Source of the DNA: an uncultured virus (IMG/VR IMGVR_UViG_3300020037_001229)
Taxonomy: Duplodnaviria > Heunggongvirae > Uroviricota > Caudoviricetes
Reading direction: 5' to 3' (one strand)
Length of the DNA stretch: 20,000 nucleotides
IMG/VR virus record: IMGVR_UViG_3300020037_001229
Both the position numbers and the translations under genes were made by a program. Numbering within the stretch: the first letter of the stretch is position 1; each line of letters begins with the position of its first letter. Positions 6,392 to 13,306 of this stretch are shown one piece after another. Below the pieces are notes generated by a model. It was not told the origin of the DNA, made no database searches, and saw nothing but the letters and a program-made list of their open reading frames with translations.

Positions 6392-9300
6392 ATGGCTACA
6401 CAGAAAAAAGCTGTAAGAAAAATTACTAGAGGCCCTGACGGTAAGATTAAAACTATTTACGTTGACGCACAAACAAAACAAGAACTGACTTCTCTTATTG
6501 GTTATACTGTTAATTCACAGAATGAGTTAGCCACTGAGGATTTTCCCCATGGATTAAACTCTATGTTAGACATGCCACATGGTCTGAATGCTATCGAAGG
6601 GTTTCCATTAACACCATTCCTGCCCGGCATTTCTGATAGAGATACTCAAGGCTCTTCGAGTGGTTCACTCTCTGACATGGAGTGGCTAAACCCTAGAAAC
6701 GGGAGAGACCCTGATTCATCTGCCTTAACTTCTGAAGACAGGACACCTGCTAATAATTTTGGTTACGTCAATAAGCCTGGTTTTCTTAGTTTAGCCTCTG
6801 CTCTTCCGGGAATTCCAGGTATTATTGGTAAAGGTATCAATGCCGCTGTCAATGCCAATAACGTAGCTGCCATTAACGCGGCAAGAGAAACTCTCGGACT
6901 CCCTGAGCAATCCACAAAGGAAGCTCTAAGAGGTATCGTCCAAGATAATAAAGGCGTCGTTGCTGAAGCCACGATTGGTAATCAACAAGTAGCCATTGGA
7001 CTCGAAGCTACTACTCCCTCGGGTCGTACTACAATGACCCCACAAGAGGCTCTTGCGAGAGCAGAAGCCAATGACGTAGAAATCCAAGAAGCTACTCCTG
7101 AAGCAAAAGAAGCGGCTGAAGCTAAATTCGCCGAAGAATACGGAAAGCAAGCACAAGGTTTCTTAGGTAATCTAAAAGACATCGTAAAGGATGTTACTGA
7201 AGCAAAAAGTCCACTAGCAAATATCAAAAGTCCCTTTGCCAACGTAAAGAGTCCTTTAACAAAAAGTGAATCTAAATCTAAAGGAAAGTCTAAGGAAGCA
7301 AAAGCAGAAAGCAAATCAACTGGTATAGCTTCTCCCGAGAGTGCCAAGAACGTTTCTATCACACCTGGTTTAGGTCTAGGTAATCTTACGAACAGAACTG
7401 CTAAGACGGACCTAGCTGGCAAAAGCCGTGGTGTTGCCCCTGACGCTACTCTGATGGATGTTATCCAACAAGCGGTAGAACAAACACTAGGGCCTGGTTA
7501 TCAAGCCGTTGTTTCTTCTGGAACTTACTCCCCCGAACAACAAGCAGCTATCAATGAAGCCCGTGCCCAAGCTTACCAAGCAGCTATTGTAGCTGGTAAA
7601 ACACAGGCACAGGCGAATAAGGCTGCTGACGCTGCTGGTAAGGCTGCCGGTCAAGTTGGTACTACAAGGCACACGACTGGCAAAGCCGCTGACTTCTATA
7701 TTGTAGACCCCCAGGGTAACAGAGTTCAAAGCACAGAGGCCCTAAAGTCTATCGCTGCTTCGCTGGCTAGCCTAGGTATTACTGGTATTGGTCTTGGTAA
7801 TCCTGGTGGCTATATGGGTGGTACTTCTATCCATGCTGACGTTGTCGACCCTTCAAAGGCGACTGGTTGGGGTGGTTTAGGCCAACAGTTCAAAGACGCT
7901 ATCAATGACTCTATTGGCCTTCCTAATAAATTTAGTCCGACGGGTATTCCGACACCAACTGCTTCTCCTAGAAACGATCCTGTTCAAGACGTTGCCACCG
8001 AGGGTACTCAAAAGTCGACGACACCTGAGCCTGTTGGATACAACACTGGTTTTGTTGGTCAAGCCTACGGTTCTGGTAATGACGCTCAACAAGCTTTTGC
8101 TCCGATGGGTTTTGCACCCACTCAGAATAGAAGTGATGTTCTTGATCCTTTGATGAGGGACCCTAGAACTGTTGAAGAAATTACGGCTCTAGCGAAGGCT
8201 ATCGCAGGTGAACTCGGTTCTAATACTCTTGCCGGTATTAACTCTGGTGATGAAGCCGCTAAATCTGTAGCACGACAAGAAATTGCTGCCATCCTAGGAA
8301 CTATAGAAAATAGAGCAGCTTCTGCGAGACACGGAGGAAACCTAGCTAGTGTCTTAACTGGCAGTCAATACAATTCACTGATGTCCTCTAACTTAGCAAC
8401 AACAGAAGCTAACTTCCAAGAGTTTGGTGATTTCATTACGGAAGCCATTCAAGATTACTACGATGGAACTAATCCTTCTCCTGCACCAAATGCTACACAC
8501 TATTGGAATCCTTCTATCGTTAGTCCTTCTTGGTCTGACTACTCCAAGGATGGTACGACAGACGTAGGGGAACATACATTTTCTGATATTGCGATTCCGG
8601 GTACAAACGTAAGTGAATACTCTAAGGGTTTGCCAAATGAAGTAAATGTATCTGAAGTTGGTAGACCGTCTTTTACGACAGAAGCTGTTGCTTCTGGTAT
8701 TGCAGGGGCAATGGCCTCTGGTAAAGGAACCACTTCTGGTTCTAGTCTTGGTCTGTCAGGTTCAGCCAGTGGCCTAGCGGGTTTAACTGGTGCTGGAAAA
8801 GGTACAATTTCGGTCAATCCGAATACAGGTATTATTTCCTTTGATGTTGTTTCACCAGAGGAATACGCGGCAGCCGTCGCTGCTTCACAACCAGCTTTTA
8901 CTGGTAATGTTCCGAGTTTCTCTTACGCAAGTCCTTCGGAAGCTTTCGCTAACTACGGTGTTAATACAACCTCTGTTGGGCCAGGTTCTGGTGTACAAAT
9001 GGATGGCCTTGGTGCTTTCGGAAGTGCTCCGGGCTCTGGTTATGGCGGGCAAGCCATGGCAGGTCTACAGGGAATGACTGGTATTTCTAGTTCATTTGAT
9101 AATCCCACGGGTATTGCCGGTACTGGTATTGGTTATGGTTTTGACGCTGGTTCACTAGGTGGTACTGCTTCTGGTTTTGGTTCTGGTTTCGGCGCTGTCG
9201 GAACTTCTGGTTATGGTAGTTTCAGTGGAGGTACCGACGCAGGGACAGACTTCGGTGGTCCAGGTACCTTCGGTGGTTCTTTCGGTGGTGGATACGGTTC

Positions 9301-10024
9301 GCAATCAACCGCTGGGGCTACTTCAGAGTCTATAGGTGCTGGTGGTTATTCTGCTCCTAGTGCTGAGTCTTCCTTTGGTGGATTTAATGCAGGTTCCCTT
9401 GGTGGTTCCGCCTCAGGATTTGGATCAGGTTTTGGTGCCGTAGGCTCCTCTAACACAGGCTCTCCTGGTTATAGTGGTTTCTCACAATCAGGTCTAGGTA
9501 ACTACTCTGGTGGTACGAGTAGCTCTTCTAGTGGCAGCACTTCCAGTTCAGGCTCAGGGAGTGGATCAAGCTCTGCCGGAAAAGGCGGTGGTGGAGGTTA
9601 CAGCGGTTATGGTGGTTTGGATTCTCCGTCCGAACACGGACCAGGCCCCGGAAGCGGCAGTGGAGACGCTGGGGGAGATACAATCCTCTGTACATACTTC
9701 CACGGAAAAGGAAGACTATCAGATGAGCTTTATTTTGCTGATAGTTCTTACGGTGCAATATACATTTCTGAAGATACAATGAATGGTTATCAACTCTGGG
9801 CAGAGCCTATTGTTGAGTACTTAAAGAAAAAGAAGCACCCTATCTTAGAAGAATTCTTATTTTTCTTTGTGAAAGGATGGGCCACAGAAATGGCTTATCG
9901 TATGGGTGTTGAAAAGAAATCTAACTTTATCGGGCGACAGATATGCAATTTTGGTGAAGCGATCTGTAGTTTAATTGGTAAGGCAACTCGTTTTATAAAG
10001 CGACCCCTGAAGGAGAATACATGA
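6392..10024 (+). CDS. large virion/ejection-type protein with predicted peptidase M15-like and Hydrolase_2 (SleB-like) domains, Gly/Ser-rich region and small C-terminal domain
   Basis: 1210 aa; HTTGKAAD...IHAD metal-ligand pattern; AIAGE...IENR...SQY...ATHYWNP...PSW...VGEHTF pattern; low-complexity region ~8690-9675. Confidence 0.75.
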   Translation: MATQKKAVRKITRGPDGKIKTIYVDAQTKQELTSLIGYTVNSQNELATEDFPHGLNSMLDMPHGLNAIEGFPLTPFLPGISDRDTQGSSSGSLSDMEWLNPRNGRDPDSSALTSEDRTPANNFGYVNKPGFLSLASALPGIPGIIGKGINAAVNANNVAAINAARETLGLPEQSTKEALRGIVQDNKGVVAEATIGNQQVAIGLEATTPSGRTTMTPQEALARAEANDVEIQEATPEAKEAAEAKFAEEYGKQAQGFLGNLKDIVKDVTEAKSPLANIKSPFANVKSPLTKSESKSKGKSKEAKAESKSTGIASPESAKNVSITPGLGLGNLTNRTAKTDLAGKSRGVAPDATLMDVIQQAVEQTLGPGYQAVVSSGTYSPEQQAAINEARAQAYQAAIVAGKTQAQANKAADAAGKAAGQVGTTRHTTGKAADFYIVDPQGNRVQSTEALKSIAASLASLGITGIGLGNPGGYMGGTSIHADVVDPSKATGWGGLGQQFKDAINDSIGLPNKFSPTGIPTPTASPRNDPVQDVATEGTQKSTTPEPVGYNTGFVGQAYGSGNDAQQAFAPMGFAPTQNRSDVLDPLMRDPRTVEEITALAKAIAGELGSNTLAGINSGDEAAKSVARQEIAAILGTIENRAASARHGGNLASVLTGSQYNSLMSSNLATTEANFQEFGDFITEAIQDYYDGTNPSPAPNATHYWNPSIVSPSWSDYSKDGTTDVGEHTFSDIAIPGTNVSEYSKGLPNEVNVSEVGRPSFTTEAVASGIAGAMASGKGTTSGSSLGLSGSASGLAGLTGAGKGTISVNPNTGIISFDVVSPEEYAAAVAASQPAFTGNVPSFSYASPSEAFANYGVNTTSVGPGSGVQMDGLGAFGSAPGSGYGGQAMAGLQGMTGISSSFDNPTGIAGTGIGYGFDAGSLGGTASGFGSGFGAVGTSGYGSFSGGTDAGTDFGGPGTFGGSFGGGYGSQSTAGATSESIGAGGYSAPSAESSFGGFNAGSLGGSASGFGSGFGAVGSSNTGSPGYSGFSQSGLGNYSGGTSSSSSGSTSSSGSGSGSSSAGKGGGGGYSGYGGLDSPSEHGPGPGSGSGDAGGDTILCTYFHGKGRLSDELYFADSSYGAIYISEDTMNGYQLWAEPIVEYLKKKKHPILEEFLFFFVKGWATEMAYRMGVEKKSNFIGRQICNFGEAICSLIGKATRFIKRPLKENT
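9137..9445 (+). repeat. two copies of a 22-aa Gly-rich unit (9137-9202, 9380-9445)
   Basis: GFDAGSLGGTASGFGSGFGAVG vs GFNAGSLGGSASGFGSGFGAVG, with many synonymous codon differences. Confidence 0.85.
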
Positions 10025-10824
10025 CAAGGTACAAAAATGATGCAAGACTTGTTCGTGAAGACCAAGAGCTTGAAGAGCTTGAAAGCAAGAAGGTAGAAGA
10101 TACGAAAGAAGAGGCTGAGGAAAAGGAACTCTCTTTTGAAGAGGAAACTTTTAAAAAGAGGTACGGCGACCTTCGTCGTTATAACCAACAGTTAGTCTCT
10201 GAGAAAGATAACCGTATCAAAGAGCTTGAACAACAGCTATCGAGTATGTCCACTGGCCCTCAGTTTCCAAAGACTAAAGAGGAATTGGACGGTTGGAAAA
10301 GCAAGTACCCCGATGTCTTTGGCCACATCCAGACTATGATTCTACAGAACAATCAAGAGTTGGATACCAAGTACAAAAAGGGCTTAGAACAAGTCAAGCA
10401 GATTGAAGATCAGATTAATAGAGATAAGGCCATCGCTGAGTTAAATCGGCTTCACCCTGATTTCTTTAATAAGATTCTTCCTGATCCAAAGTTCAAGGAA
10501 TGGGCGGAAGCTCAGCCAGCTTGGATGATCGATTCACTCAATGGGTGGGACGCTATCGCCGCCGGAAGAGTTATCGATTTGTATAAGGCCGATATGGGTC
10601 TTTATACTAAAGAAAAACAAAAGGTTGACTCTAAAAGAGAAGCAGCCGAAAACGTAACACGTAAAGTTTCTAGTGGTCCCGATATGTCTTCGGATAGACC
10701 TAAGTACAAAGAGTCGCAGATTGAAAAAATGTCTGCGAGAGAGTACGAACGTTTAGAAGATGACATTATGGAAGCATTTCGTACCGGTCGAATTGAGTAC
10801 GATGTCACCGGGGCTGCTCGTTAA
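10021..10824 (+). CDS. capsid scaffolding/assembly protein
   Basis: acidic coiled-coil protein just upstream of MCP; FKKRYGDLRR, LHPDF and C-terminal MSAREYERLEDDIMEAFRTGRI motifs. Confidence 0.85.
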   Translation: MTRYKNDARLVREDQELEELESKKVEDTKEEAEEKELSFEEETFKKRYGDLRRYNQQLVSEKDNRIKELEQQLSSMSTGPQFPKTKEELDGWKSKYPDVFGHIQTMILQNNQELDTKYKKGLEQVKQIEDQINRDKAIAELNRLHPDFFNKILPDPKFKEWAEAQPAWMIDSLNGWDAIAAGRVIDLYKADMGLYTKEKQKVDSKREAAENVTRKVSSGPDMSSDRPKYKESQIEKMSAREYERLEDDIMEAFRTGRIEYDVTGAAR

Positions 10825-11014: not shown

Positions 11015-12058
11015 ATGGCATTTCAAAAAGCATCTGGTTACCAAAATTTGCCCAATGGAGTATTTTCTCCGACGCTTTACTCTAAGAAGGTTCAGAAAGC
11101 CTTCCGTAAGGCCTCGGTTGTAGAGGGTATTACTAACTCGGACTTTTTTGGGGAAATCTCTAACTTCGGTGATTCGGTTCGCATTATCAAGGAGCCGGAA
11201 ATCACTGTCCAGAACTACGCACGTGGTACTCAGATTACTCCGCAGGATATGACGGATGAGGACTTCTCGCTCGTTGTAGATAAGGCTAATTACTTCGCCT
11301 TTAAGGTCGATGACATTGAAGAGAAGCACTCGCACGTTAACTGGATGGACCTCGCCACCGACCGTGCAGGCTACAAGATGAAGGACACGTATGACTCGGA
11401 AGTTCTGGGTTATATGTCGGGCTACGTTAAGAATAGCTCGGGCGTCTGGATTGCGAATACTACGACTTCGGGTTCGGTAGCCAATACGTCGGCTGGTACT
11501 GACGAATGGCTTACTGCTCAGAAGCTCGCTCGTGACGACTTTGTCTCGGGTGGTTCCGCCTCGGACTCTATCGCTGTTGGTGTCGCTGGTACTTACGATG
11601 TGACTCCTCTTGCGATCCTTAACCGAATGAATCGTATTATGGACCTCTATAACGTCCCGAAGGATGGTCGTTGGGTTGTCGTTGATCCGGTCTTCGTTGA
11701 GATTCTGATGGACGAAAACTCGAAGTTTATGAACCATGACTATCAGGGTTCGGAAGACTTCACTAACGGCAGAATTTCGGCTGGTAAGATTCGTGGATTT
11801 AATGTCCACATGTCTAATAACCTTCCGTATCTCGGTACGGGTCCTGGTACGGCTGACTCCAACGGTTCGTCCGCGAACTACGGTGTGATCCTTGCGGGTC
11901 ATATGTCCGCCGCCGCCACTGCTACTCAGATCACAAAGACGGAATCGTACCGTGATCCTGACTCGTTCGCTGATATTGTTCGTGGTATGCAGCTTTACGG
12001 CCGTAAAATACTTAGGAGTGAAAGCTTAGTTCGAGCTATCTACAATATTAACTCCTAA
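11015..12058 (+). CDS. major capsid protein (exon 1 = 11015-12004; unspliced frame continues through an intron-borne tail to TAA 12058; 347 aa)
   Basis: strong RBS TAGGAG; motifs FSPTLYSKK, GEISNFGDSVRIIKEP, FAFKVDDIE, GRWVVVDP, SNNLP, RDPDSFADIVRGMQLYG; strongly biased codon usage. Confidence 0.95.
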   Translation: MAFQKASGYQNLPNGVFSPTLYSKKVQKAFRKASVVEGITNSDFFGEISNFGDSVRIIKEPEITVQNYARGTQITPQDMTDEDFSLVVDKANYFAFKVDDIEEKHSHVNWMDLATDRAGYKMKDTYDSEVLGYMSGYVKNSSGVWIANTTTSGSVANTSAGTDEWLTAQKLARDDFVSGGSASDSIAVGVAGTYDVTPLAILNRMNRIMDLYNVPKDGRWVVVDPVFVEILMDENSKFMNHDYQGSEDFTNGRISAGKIRGFNVHMSNNLPYLGTGPGTADSNGSSANYGVILAGHMSAAATATQITKTESYRDPDSFADIVRGMQLYGRKILRSESLVRAIYNINS

Positions 12059-12740
12059 TGCGCTTCATACATTAATTGTATGTCGAAACCCTCTTAATTC
12101 AGAGAAACTCTAAGGAAGACAGCGCGCTTCTATGACAACCCTGAGCGAAGCCTCTTATGAGGAACGTGCAACGACTAACCCTACCAAGGTGTACATCCAA
12201 GTGGATGGAAATAGAGGGAAACTTATACACTAAGTTTTTGATATAGTCTAATCTATATGGAAACATATAGCAGAAAGGTTAAGTTTAGAATGAAATTAAA
12301 ACTACCAGAAAACCATCCGCATAAAGACGGAAGGGAATGCACAACTTGTAATACTTTTAAGAGCGCCTCAGAATTTACTTTATCGAGAGATAAAAGGAGT
12401 TTTGGTGGTATAGCGATGCGATCAAAGTGTAAAACGTGTGACGAACTAAGAAAGTACAAAGGGTTCGTTAAAAGAACATACAATTTAACATTTGAAGGCT
12501 ACGAACAGCTTTTAGAAAAACAGAATTACTGTTGTGCGATCTGTGAAAGTAAAATTTCTAGTAAAAGAACTTCTAGACTCTTTGTTGACCATTGTCATGA
12601 GACATTAGTAGTCAGAGGTTTGCTCTGCTCTTCTTGTAATCATGGTCTCGGTCAGTTTAAAGATAGTCCAAAACTTTTACAGAGAGCAATACAATATTTA
12701 ACCTCGGGTAAGACTTAACGACTCTTACTGAATGAAAATG
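12005..12740 (+). ncRNA. group I self-splicing intron, subgroup IA2-like (736 nt), in the MCP gene
   Basis: 5' exon ends in U12004 pairing with G12060; terminal G12740; P2 CATACA/TGTATG (12066-12082); P3 CCCTCT 12089-94 / AGAGGG 12213-18; P4 TTCAG/CTGAG; P6a CCTC/GAGG; P7 GACTA 12173-77 / TAGTC 12244-48 in GCAACGACTA and GATATAGTC contexts; extra hairpins between P7 and P3'; P8 AACTTA/TAAGTT; P9 CTATATG-GAAA-CATATAG; removal rejoins the MCP frame. Confidence 0.93.
12290..12718 (+). CDS. intron-encoded EndoVII-type HNH (His-Me finger) homing endonuclease
   Basis: CTTC...CKTC zinc finger, then CAIC...VDHCH...VRGLLCSSCNHGLG; located in the P9.1 loop; ATG 12290 follows AAAGG (alternative ATG 12257 lies inside the P9 hairpin). 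Confidence 0.9.
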   Translation: MKLKLPENHPHKDGRECTTCNTFKSASEFTLSRDKRSFGGIAMRSKCKTCDELRKYKGFVKRTYNLTFEGYEQLLEKQNYCCAICESKISSKRTSRLFVDHCHETLVVRGLLCSSCNHGLGQFKDSPKLLQRAIQYLTSGKT

Positions 12741-12794
12741 AAAATCTTGCGTCCCGAGACGCTCGTTCGCGCCATTTACAATATCAACGTCTAA
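12741..12794 (+). CDS. major capsid protein exon 2 (KILRPETLVRAIYNINV*)
   Basis: follows intron terminal G; joins exon 1 in frame as YGR|KILRPE, giving 347 aa; followed by the RBS of the next gene. Confidence 0.9.
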   Translation, partial: KILRPETLVRAIYNINV

Positions 12795-12811
12795 TTTAAG
12801 GAGTATTACTT

Positions 12812-13306
12812 ATGGCTACTGTTGATATGTCTGCGGGTGTGACCACGTTGCACCCCACTCGCTCGGGTAATACGTCTTTACCGTATCTCGTCGAGGTTGA
12901 CCTTGATATCGCCGCTGCGGCTACTGAAAAGGGTTCTGCCCTTGCTGCTGACGACGTTATTCAGGTTATTGATGTCCCTGCTGGTACTCTCGTACTTGCA
13001 GCGGGTTTTGAAGTGACCACGGAGACGACTGATACTCAGACTGACGTTACTGTCGACATGGGTATCACTGATATCGACGCCGATGTTTTCGTTGATGGTT
13101 TCGACCTCGACGGCGCTTCGGCTGGTGCTTACCCACAGCAACCGGCGGCTTACCAGCCTGTCGTTATTGGCGCTTCTGCCGATACTATCGATATCCTGAT
13201 CAAGACTGCTACTGCTGCTCCGACGGCAGGTGAGCTTAGAGTTTGGGCTGTCCTTATGGACATTTCGGACCGTAAGGCTCCTGGCATTGTTGCTCTTGGT
13301 TCTTAA
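12812..13306 (+). CDS. putative capsid decoration/minor capsid protein
   Basis: 164 aa directly after MCP, strong RBS TAAGGAG, MCP-like codon bias, beta-rich acidic sequence, followed by a terminator. Confidence 0.7.
   Translation: MATVDMSAGVTTLHPTRSGNTSLPYLVEVDLDIAAAATEKGSALAADDVIQVIDVPAGTLVLAAGFEVTTETTDTQTDVTVDMGITDIDADVFVDGFDLDGASAGAYPQQPAAYQPVVIGASADTIDILIKTATAAPTAGELRVWAVLMDISDRKAPGIVALGS

Follow-up and report, generated by a model that had tools for sequence, protein, structure and literature searches.

The stretch of DNA analysed here (20,000 nucleotides (nt), hereafter the window) derives from an uncultured virus of the Caudoviricetes (IMG/VR record IMGVR_UViG_3300020037_001229) and contains a gene for the major capsid protein (MCP) that is interrupted close to its 3' end by a group I intron. 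The first 54 nt of the intron continue the MCP reading frame and repeat, with many codons changed, the short exon that lies behind it. The copy inside the intron is here named tail A, and the exon behind the intron tail B. The locus is composed of the following features, all positions being those of the window.

11015-12004, plus strand: MCP exon 1, 330 codons ending in ..MQLYGR (CGT), assigned from the list of open reading frames (ORFs) and from MCP homology.
12005-12740, plus strand: group I intron of 736 nt, with the 5' splice site after U12004 and G12740 as last base.
12005-12058, plus strand: tail A, KILRSESLVRAIYNINS plus TAA, a recoded in-frame copy of exon 2 within the P1 loop, also in frame in the related loci L123, L124 and L125/L126.
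12044-12270, plus strand: match to RF00028 covering the ribozyme core P3-P9 (79.8 bits versus a gathering score of 50, E 3.8e-19, full model 1-253).
12290-12718, plus strand: ORF for a homing endonuclease of the endonuclease VII/HNH type, 142 amino acids (aa), its start being set by relatives that begin MS(K)LKLP.
12741-12794, plus strand: exon 2 or tail B, the native last 17 codons, KILRPETLVRAIYNINV plus TAA, with TAATTTAAGGAG downstream as in the intron-less loci L006/L007.

Read without splicing, exon 1 and tail A form a single ORF (11015-12058, plus strand) of 347 aa ending in KILRSESLVRAIYNINS, and as exon 1 provides 330 codons, the spliced product would also measure 347 aa. Tails A and B coincide at 35 of 54 nt and at 14 of 17 aa, 9 of the 14 common residues being written with different codons; on recount, these figures, the coordinates and the equal length by both routes agree exactly with those of a preliminary description of this DNA. 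The tails are mosaic, with 11 of 24 bases in common before the pentamer GTTCG and 24 of 30 from GTTCG onwards. Tail A also differs from the gene in composition (GC content of 0.315, versus 0.463 for tail B and 0.494 for the MCP body at 11015-12004) and in codon choice. Its codons include ATA, AGG, AGT, AGC, TTA and CGA, and in the 330-codon body ATA (0 of 17 Ile), AGG (0 of 13 Arg), TTA (0 of 15 Leu) and AGT (0 of 30 Ser) are absent, in agreement with the codon bias already claimed, while CGA appears once (1 of 13 Arg).

Relatives of the gene indicate which of both endings is the native one. The window MCP shares 58-79% aa identity with MCP genes on 80 viral contigs, and is 63-64% identical to the annotated MCPs of Rhizobium phages RHph_N3_19 and RHph_I3_11 and of Sinorhizobium phage phiM6. 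Intron-less relatives are colinear across the insertion site. In L006/L007 (79% aa) the gene reads ..YGRKILRPESLVR.., its full ending being ..YGRKILRPESLVRVIWNIGLQN, and the stop codon is followed by TAATTTAAGGAG, just as position 12794 is in the window. The MCPs of the three annotated phages end in ..YGRKIL[KR]PQGLVRA.., and all 23 marine relatives recovered by the single metagenome scan (24 loci, the remaining one, L112, being a spurious match) show ..YGRKILRPE.. or ..YGRKVLRPE.. Because these endings match tail B, tail B must be the native continuation of the gene and tail A an added copy; the earlier impression that exon 2 looks native is thus borne out, both by the endings and by the TAATTTAAGGAG found after the stop. 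The Ser that replaces Pro in tail A is not foreign to the family, several intron-less relatives (e.g. L013-L016) having ..LRSE.. Regarding distribution, a 23-mer of the exon 1 end was found on six viral contigs (three of the window type, two intron-less ones at 79% aa, L087/L089, and a more distant one, L088), and a 20-mer of tail A on the three window-type contigs only. The endonuclease was present in 5 of 113 MCP-derived loci, all of the window type (the loci L123-L126, with an endonuclease at the same site, came from a separate search), and the site is therefore polymorphic for presence and absence of the element.

That separate search, made with the endonuclease against viral contigs, returned 56 relatives in 55 loci, of which 18 were scanned with Rfam. 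In L123, L124, L125 and L126 a match to RF00028 at 55-66 bits lies directly upstream of the endonuclease ORF, and these introns, too, lie in MCP genes of this family and split them at the codon boundary used in the window, with exon 1 ending in GGN CGT. Together with the window (tail-A stop to TGCGCTT, 0 nt) they make up four diverged lineages, the three further ones being as follows.

L123: tail A KILRSEALVTAKYNLA; stop to TGCGCTT, 8 nt; tail B KILRPEALVTAKYNLA.
L124: tail A KILRSEAICTAKYNLA; stop to TGCGCTT, 0 nt; tail B KILRPEAITTAKYNLA.
L125/L126: tail A KILRSEAITTAKYNLA; stop to TGCGCTT, 8 nt; tail B KILRPEALTVAKYNLA.

In all four lineages the intron boundaries read ..CGT/AAR.. and ..AATG/AAR.. 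(the slash marking the junction), tail A is in frame and has the length of its own lineage's tail B, and an intact tail B keeps its frame and native length. Relative to the window, the endonucleases of L123-L126 show 57-64% aa global identity (81/142, 85/142 and 91/150; best tblastn segments 57-66%), and their MCP ends 55-58% (74-78 of 134 aa). Between lineages, identity is 66-89% nt for the ribozyme, 55-77% nt and 53-85% aa for the endonuclease, and 63-82% for the last 400 nt of exon 1. Divergence of the element thus tracks that of the capsid gene, and therefore either the association is old or the element moves among kin.

Differences in tail A fall mainly on third codon positions (7, 3 and 30 at positions 1, 2 and 3, i.e. 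30 of 40, for L123, L124 and L125), as do those in tail B (6, 4 and 22), and pN values of 0.08-0.11 versus pS values of 0.81-1.08 are the same as for tail B. The two other frames of tail A hold stops in three of the four lineages. This pattern indicates that tail A is under protein-level, coding-type selection, as had been proposed from the window: the homologous tails of all three further lineages are conserved and in frame, and none is frameshifted. The tail A of L125 best matches the tail B of L124 (15/16), and the other three best match the tail B of their own host, which suggests that tail A moves as part of the element and is now and then renewed from host sequence. An intron frame open by chance, or a decaying read-through devoid of function, has in its favour just the general fact that upstream frames often enter phage introns by a few codons. 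When the bases of tail A were shuffled, none of 200,000 versions reached at least 14 residues identical to tail B, the best reaching 8, so that a chance likeness of the tails is excluded. Considering as well that frame, length and residues are kept in 4/4 lineages with substitutions mostly at third positions, such a read-through has a negligible probability and is already refuted.

The covariance-model match to RF00028, well above its gathering score, substantiates the claim of a group I intron, as the features listed above do for a homing-type endonuclease ORF and a recoded in-frame exon 2 copy occupying the first 54 nt. The elements that define its boundaries and its folds are the following.

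11999-12005, plus strand: 5' strand of P1 (GGCCGU/A), pairing with 12059-12065 in the minimum-energy fold.
12059-12065, plus strand: internal guide sequence UGCGCUU, directly 3' of the tail-A stop, TGCGCTT in all four lineages.
12012-12019, plus strand: 5' arm of the P1 extension helix, UUAGGAGU, tail-A codons Leu-Arg-Ser, a perfect 8-bp complement of 12051-12058.
12051-12058, plus strand: 3' arm of the P1 extension helix, ACUCCUAA, tail-A codons Asn-Ser-stop.
12066-12082, plus strand: P2 hairpin, with compensatory changes across lineages (alignment columns 82-97).
12278-12286, plus strand: tentative 5' arm of an ORF-closing stem, a 9-bp pairing with 12711-12719 (dG -13.2).
12711-12719, plus strand: tentative 3' arm of the ORF-closing stem, pairing with 12278-12286.

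The predicted P1 consists of A12005-U12059, U12004.G12060, G12003-C12061 and C12002-G12062, followed by one mismatch and two G.U pairs; the mismatch is the third position of a Gly codon and is paired in L124 (GGG). Folding of the 5' region alone to minimum energy yields P1 and its extension helix in 4/4 lineages, extension helices with changed bases being predicted in L123, L124 (UCAGG/CCUGA) and L125. The predicted helix accounts for the AGR-AGY (Arg-Ser) of all four tail As, versus the native CGN-CCN (Arg-Pro). Part of the tail-A recoding would accordingly have, on the predicted folds, an RNA-structural reason that the preliminary description missed. When the four capsid introns were aligned with two introns of Staphylococcus phages, 29 of 56 consensus pairs had both sides changed. 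Exon and guide also covary, being CGU and GCG here and GCAU and GUGC in the homologue of Staphylococcus phage vB_SauM_JDF86 (OQ129426.1; Twort-like), and the intron-final AATG (omega G) abuts tail B in 4/4 lineages. The predicted ORF-closing stem would place the endonuclease ORF in a loop and mask its Shine-Dalgarno region.

Other splice sites were considered and discarded. The P1 drawn by the Rfam alignment includes many non-standard pairs and was not followed. Their pairing spoke against in-frame U...G sites at offset 9 (12013/12749) and offset 49 (12053/12789), the latter judged in the window alone, and against the site at 12048 homologous to that of JDF86; in L123, moreover, tail B has a T at base +9, which rules out offset 9 there.

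A position further downstream would nevertheless be expected if tail A were an ordinary exon, brought from a donor phage as a co-conversion tract, with the true 5' splice site at about 12046-12056 and tail B left behind by imprecise insertion. The Rfam alignment, with P1 at 12048-12067, points in this direction, as does the JDF86 tail-tube intron, whose similarity to the window starts at 12037 and whose likely splice site, GCAU/UAAAC, aligns with 12048/12049; splicing from 12048 to 12735 would moreover give ..YNIK, a possible ending. However, an exon ending at 12046-12048 forms at most three pairs with the guide, none of them an exon-side U.G with further pairs, and the G that forms the wobble in JDF86 corresponds to an A (12058) in the window. 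Neither does this model account for a distance from stop to guide that varies between 0 and 8 nt while the upstream CGU/GCG match is kept in 4/4 lineages, and among its in-frame U...G alternatives the one at offset 9 is lost in L123. We consider it very improbable.

The ORF inside the intron matches endonuclease VII in Pfam (PF02945, residues 71-149, E 3.1e-25), and Hpy99I (2.6e-13) and T4 endonuclease VII (0.0036) in the PDB; its fold is one that we take to be HNH. Endonucleases 53-62% identical in aa to that of the window are also encoded by free-standing genes placed between an ordinary MCP stop and the next gene, with neither ribozyme nor second tail.

L127, 2001-2423; L128, 2001-2411; L129 and L130, 2001-2423: free-standing endonuclease genes.

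At these loci a hairpin follows the MCP stop. The free-standing form may represent a stage that precedes or follows the intron form; the endonuclease tree separates the free-standing copies as one group (90/89) from those in introns, but most of its forks are weak, and no direction of evolution is claimed. Among the matches listed from a tblastn search of the endonuclease in cultured phages (1915 records), none lies beside this MCP family; two records, outside the 25 listed, had a best place of 60-80% identity, and the best near-full-length match among those listed reached 44%.

A lead on the target of the enzyme comes from the Arg codon situated two before Glu. Of 59 distinct endonuclease-free MCP ends, 57 have CGN at this place (the exceptions being L069, with AGG, and L001/L003, with AAG); the codon is CGT in 4/4 tail Bs, and AGA, AGG or AAG in all seven distinct endonuclease-linked ends (four intron lineages and three free-standing genes). 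As the lineages are related, the pattern is a lead and not a test. It fits a putative target that spans the insertion site and includes this CGN, which tail A would have to avoid rebuilding. The earlier claim that recoding removes the endonuclease target thus gains circumstantial support, in the form of CGN in 57/59 endonuclease-free versus 0/7 endonuclease-linked ends.

We regard as likely, and prefer to the alternatives, that the locus holds a mobile group I intron, inserted between MCP codons 330 and 331, that carries a spare tail and so leaves the capsid protein complete whether or not it is spliced. The stretch between the 5' splice site and the guide, normally a short P1 loop, would have been expanded to 54 nt of capsid frame, and the endonuclease ORF would be looped out near the 3' end of the intron. 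Unspliced mRNA would yield a 347-aa capsid protein ending in ..SESLVRAIYNINS, and spliced mRNA, with the predicted junction ..GGCCGU/AAAAUCUUG.., one of the same length ending in ..PETLVRAIYNINV, the native end being restored. Ribosomes on the late and heavily translated MCP message would cross the 5' splice site and travel up to a stop that touches the guide. Because the tail-A stop sits on the guide sequence, translation and P1 formation are presumably mutually exclusive, and the spare tail would then act as an insurance that makes failed splicing harmless. The strong recoding of the first eight codons (11/24 bases kept) most likely serves two ends: (i) the P1 extension helix, in which the Leu-Arg-Ser codons CUN-AGR-AGY pair with the bases immediately 5' of the guide, and (ii) the avoidance of a rebuilt endonuclease target (..CGT/AAA ATY YTN CGN CCN..) at the 5' junction.

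Several observations weigh against this explanation. All four intron lineages are uncultured contigs, and the three window-type contigs are identical in the region read, so that they offer no within-lineage variation at tail B after insertion. P1 comprises three Watson-Crick or wobble pairs at the splice site plus two G.U pairs past a mismatch, and in the window 11 of 289 U positions pair with the guide as well as U12004 does (equally good positions number 6 of 300 in L123, 1 of 181 in L124 and 5 of 130 in L126). Inspection by eye revealed no convincing P10 that would pair the beginning of exon 2 with the bases preceding the guide. The ORF-closing stem only modestly beats shuffled sequences, 19, 6, 18 and 51 of 500 being as good in the window and the three further lineages. 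As P1 pairing alone is weak, the argument for the splice site rests on its conserved position, on the G before tail B in 4/4 lineages and on the covariation of the guide. Sequencing runs add to the points on this side. Parts of 11015-13306 are present in 20 of 24 listed runs, none with more than 0.70 of the sampled words, and four were examined as assembled contigs (one DNA run, one uncertain and two metatranscriptomes). The 12004/12741 joint was seen in none of the assembled contigs of these four runs, for which reason its absence proves nothing. The only joint was found in metatranscriptome X16, on a 247-nt contig (depth 2.83) that matches 11951-12028 with 4 differing letters and 12765-12933 with 1, leaving out 736 nt; as five letters (GTTCG) fit either side, the joint may lie anywhere at 12028-33/12765-70.

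None of the six placements of the X16 joint pairs a U before the 5' cut with a G before the 3' exon, and it is therefore not a product of canonical group I splicing. Its hybrid tail consists of the first eight codons of tail A and the last ten of tail B. Contigs of the DNA run X1 and of the RNA run X15 also break at 12765. In X15 and X16 the endonuclease ORF is without cover (12256-12710), a lack that is not itself evidence, and on this account both runs are taken to hold mainly an intron-less relative. The X16 hybrid is read as a DNA allele of a related strain, from which the intron was lost by recombination between tail A and tail B, a reading that fits the mosaic of the window's own tails around GTTCG; a reverse-transcription artefact is a possible alternative. 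The suggestion made earlier that recoding hinders recombinational loss is contradicted by this contig, since it joins tail A to tail B precisely at the common GTTCG.

A broader proposal, on which we rely considerably less than on the spare tail itself, is advanced tentatively. Introns with such surrogate exons might form a distinct and recurrent strategy, in which a selfish intron of group I settles at the 3' end of the virus gene that is most heavily translated, its P1 sequence being both an RNA helix and a selected exon copy. Competition between ribosome and ribozyme would set the ratio of two capsid C-termini (Ser/Ser-ended versus Pro/Val-ended), capsids being perhaps mixed, and the copy would serve as an immunity site against the element's own endonuclease and as a substrate on which the intron could be lost, the X16 hybrid then being an example of the recoded scar left behind.

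In the accessible part of PMC3630166, elements of fungal mitochondria named mORFs are described as bringing a replacement C-terminus to Allomyces macrogynus atp6 and to atp6, atp9, cox2 and nad3 of Glomus sp. The window resembles them, as far as that part goes, in the association of a homing-type endonuclease gene with a diverged in-frame copy of the host 3' end, the native 3' end being kept downstream, and in copies of low nt identity (64-81% for mORFs, 65% for the window) and high protein identity (PMC3630166). On the contrary, mORF endonucleases are of the LAGLIDADG or GIY-YIG type and the copy is treated there as a foreign exon, with no ribozyme said, in the same portion of the source, to remove it (PMC3630166). 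In the window, the host is a phage capsid gene, the endonuclease is of the endonuclease VII/HNH type, and the copy lies inside the P1 loop of a group I intron, so that splicing would remove it and restore the native end.

A similar 3'-end replacement must hence be weighed for the window: the capsid protein would always end in tail A, the ribozyme would either not splice or serve endonuclease expression only, and tail B would be an untranslated relic. The order inserted C-terminus, endonuclease gene, native C-terminus is that of the Allomyces atp6 and Glomus atp6/atp9/cox2/nad3 hybrids, and the native end is absent from the mRNA in fungal atp6 and cox2, according to the available sections of PMC3630166. 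The missing spliced junction in the contigs of four runs agrees with it, ribosomes on tail A should disturb P1, and the free-standing endonucleases of L127-L130, placed after an ordinary MCP stop, imply that the enzyme needs no intron. Nonetheless, compensatory changes preserve the ribozyme core in lineages that have diverged as far as their capsid genes have, the guide matches the exon 1/tail A boundary exactly with a G just before tail B in 4/4 lineages, and tail B remains intact, in frame and of native length in all of them. Whereas replacement by an mORF presupposes that the insert is not an intron, here a conserved ribozyme brackets exactly tail A plus the endonuclease ORF. Since it leaves unexplained both this covarying ribozyme and an intact tail B in every lineage, replacement is judged unlikely, and the intron with a spare tail is retained.

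Comparison with bacteriophage introns gives a complementary view. According to the accessible portion of PMC3984707, translation and splicing are coupled, and a stop placed in frame shortly behind the 5' splice site is regarded as stalling ribosomes so that the intron folds. As in introns of the T4 td/nrdB type, the upstream frame of the window enters the intron and stops before the catalytic core, and the position of the ribosome relative to P1 matters; those read-throughs, as presented in the same portion, are short and meaningless and the gene depends on splicing (PMC3984707), whereas that of the window spans 17 codons, 14 of them identical in residue to exon 2, with its stop on the guide. 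The tail-tube intron of JDF86 shares about 70% nt identity over the ribozyme core and likewise interrupts a highly expressed structural gene a few codons short of its end. Unlike the window, it has a 10-nt P1 loop, three read-through codons (LNF before the stop) and no endonuclease ORF. The annotated JDF86 tail-tube coding sequence (L084, 1105-1524; OQ129426.1) ends inside this group I intron (..LNF); judging from the sequence, its real ending is probably a 5-codon exon 2 after an intron of about 230 nt, and the recorded protein is likewise probably mis-terminated.

Homing endonucleases that stand free beside their target gene have been proposed, in the accessible part of PMC8393795, to give rise together with an ORF-less intron to a composite mobile intron. 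As in that route, both the free-standing relatives (L127-L130, 53-62% aa) and ORF-less group I introns exist in the same MCP family; unlike the window, the free-standing-to-composite models, in the part at hand, include no duplicated and recoded exon inside the intron (PMC8393795). The accessible parts of PMC10580990 and PMC11878797 had no bearing on introns that carry an exon copy. The closest published analogue found is C-terminus replacement by mORFs, within the limits of the accessible text (PMC3630166). Searches of the full-text literature, which did not cover subscription-only papers, turned up no report of a group I intron, from phages or from bacteria, that repeats its own 3' exon in frame.

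Textbook phage group I introns are tolerated because they are spliced, and the host gene depends on the ribozyme. By carrying a working copy of what the intron cuts off, the element of the window would remove this dependence, and the spare tail would explain how an intron can reside in a gene whose message is packed with ribosomes. It would also provide a natural example of one RNA segment selected both as protein-coding sequence and as ribozyme helix, and a link between phage introns and the C-terminus-replacing endonuclease elements of fungal mitochondria. Gene callers will miss the intron and the native ending, because the capsid ORF looks complete. As both outcomes leave different C-terminal peptides (..AIYNINS versus ..AIYNINV), the question of translation versus splicing in bacterial introns becomes directly testable.

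Other introns and features were observed in this family and in the window. Related MCP genes contain group I introns without an ORF (RF00028, 80-83 bits) in L029 (731-942), L064 (2225-2455) and L072 (3155-3373); these occupy two further sites, one following residue ~55-57 and the other residue 106, and the MCP genes of L075 and L078 are split as in L072. This MCP family is an intron hotspot. The MCP gene of L124 holds, upstream of the intron with the tail copy, a second RF00028 match (173-936, 51.4 bits) that encloses a 198-aa open frame (300-896) starting with ..MKKCSKCKETK.., probably another endonuclease. In L123 the endonuclease ORF reaches the intron end, its TGA stop (2442-2444) overlapping the 3' splice site (..AATG/A..). 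Around the capsid gene of the window, two further features are found.

12812-13306, plus strand: next structural gene, 164 aa, without Pfam family, its ribosome-binding site being located after tail B.
6392-10024: ORF of 1210 aa with long Gly/Ser/Ala-rich low-complexity stretches, upstream of a scaffold-like gene (10021-10824), possibly an internal virion or ejection protein.

In wastewater run X8, finally, the summed contig depth at 12165-12346 rises to ~4700 from ~30 in the flanks, and many different loose ends occur at 12239-12240 and 12270-12274; this peak corresponds to the conserved P7-P9 segment, common to many other introns of that sample.

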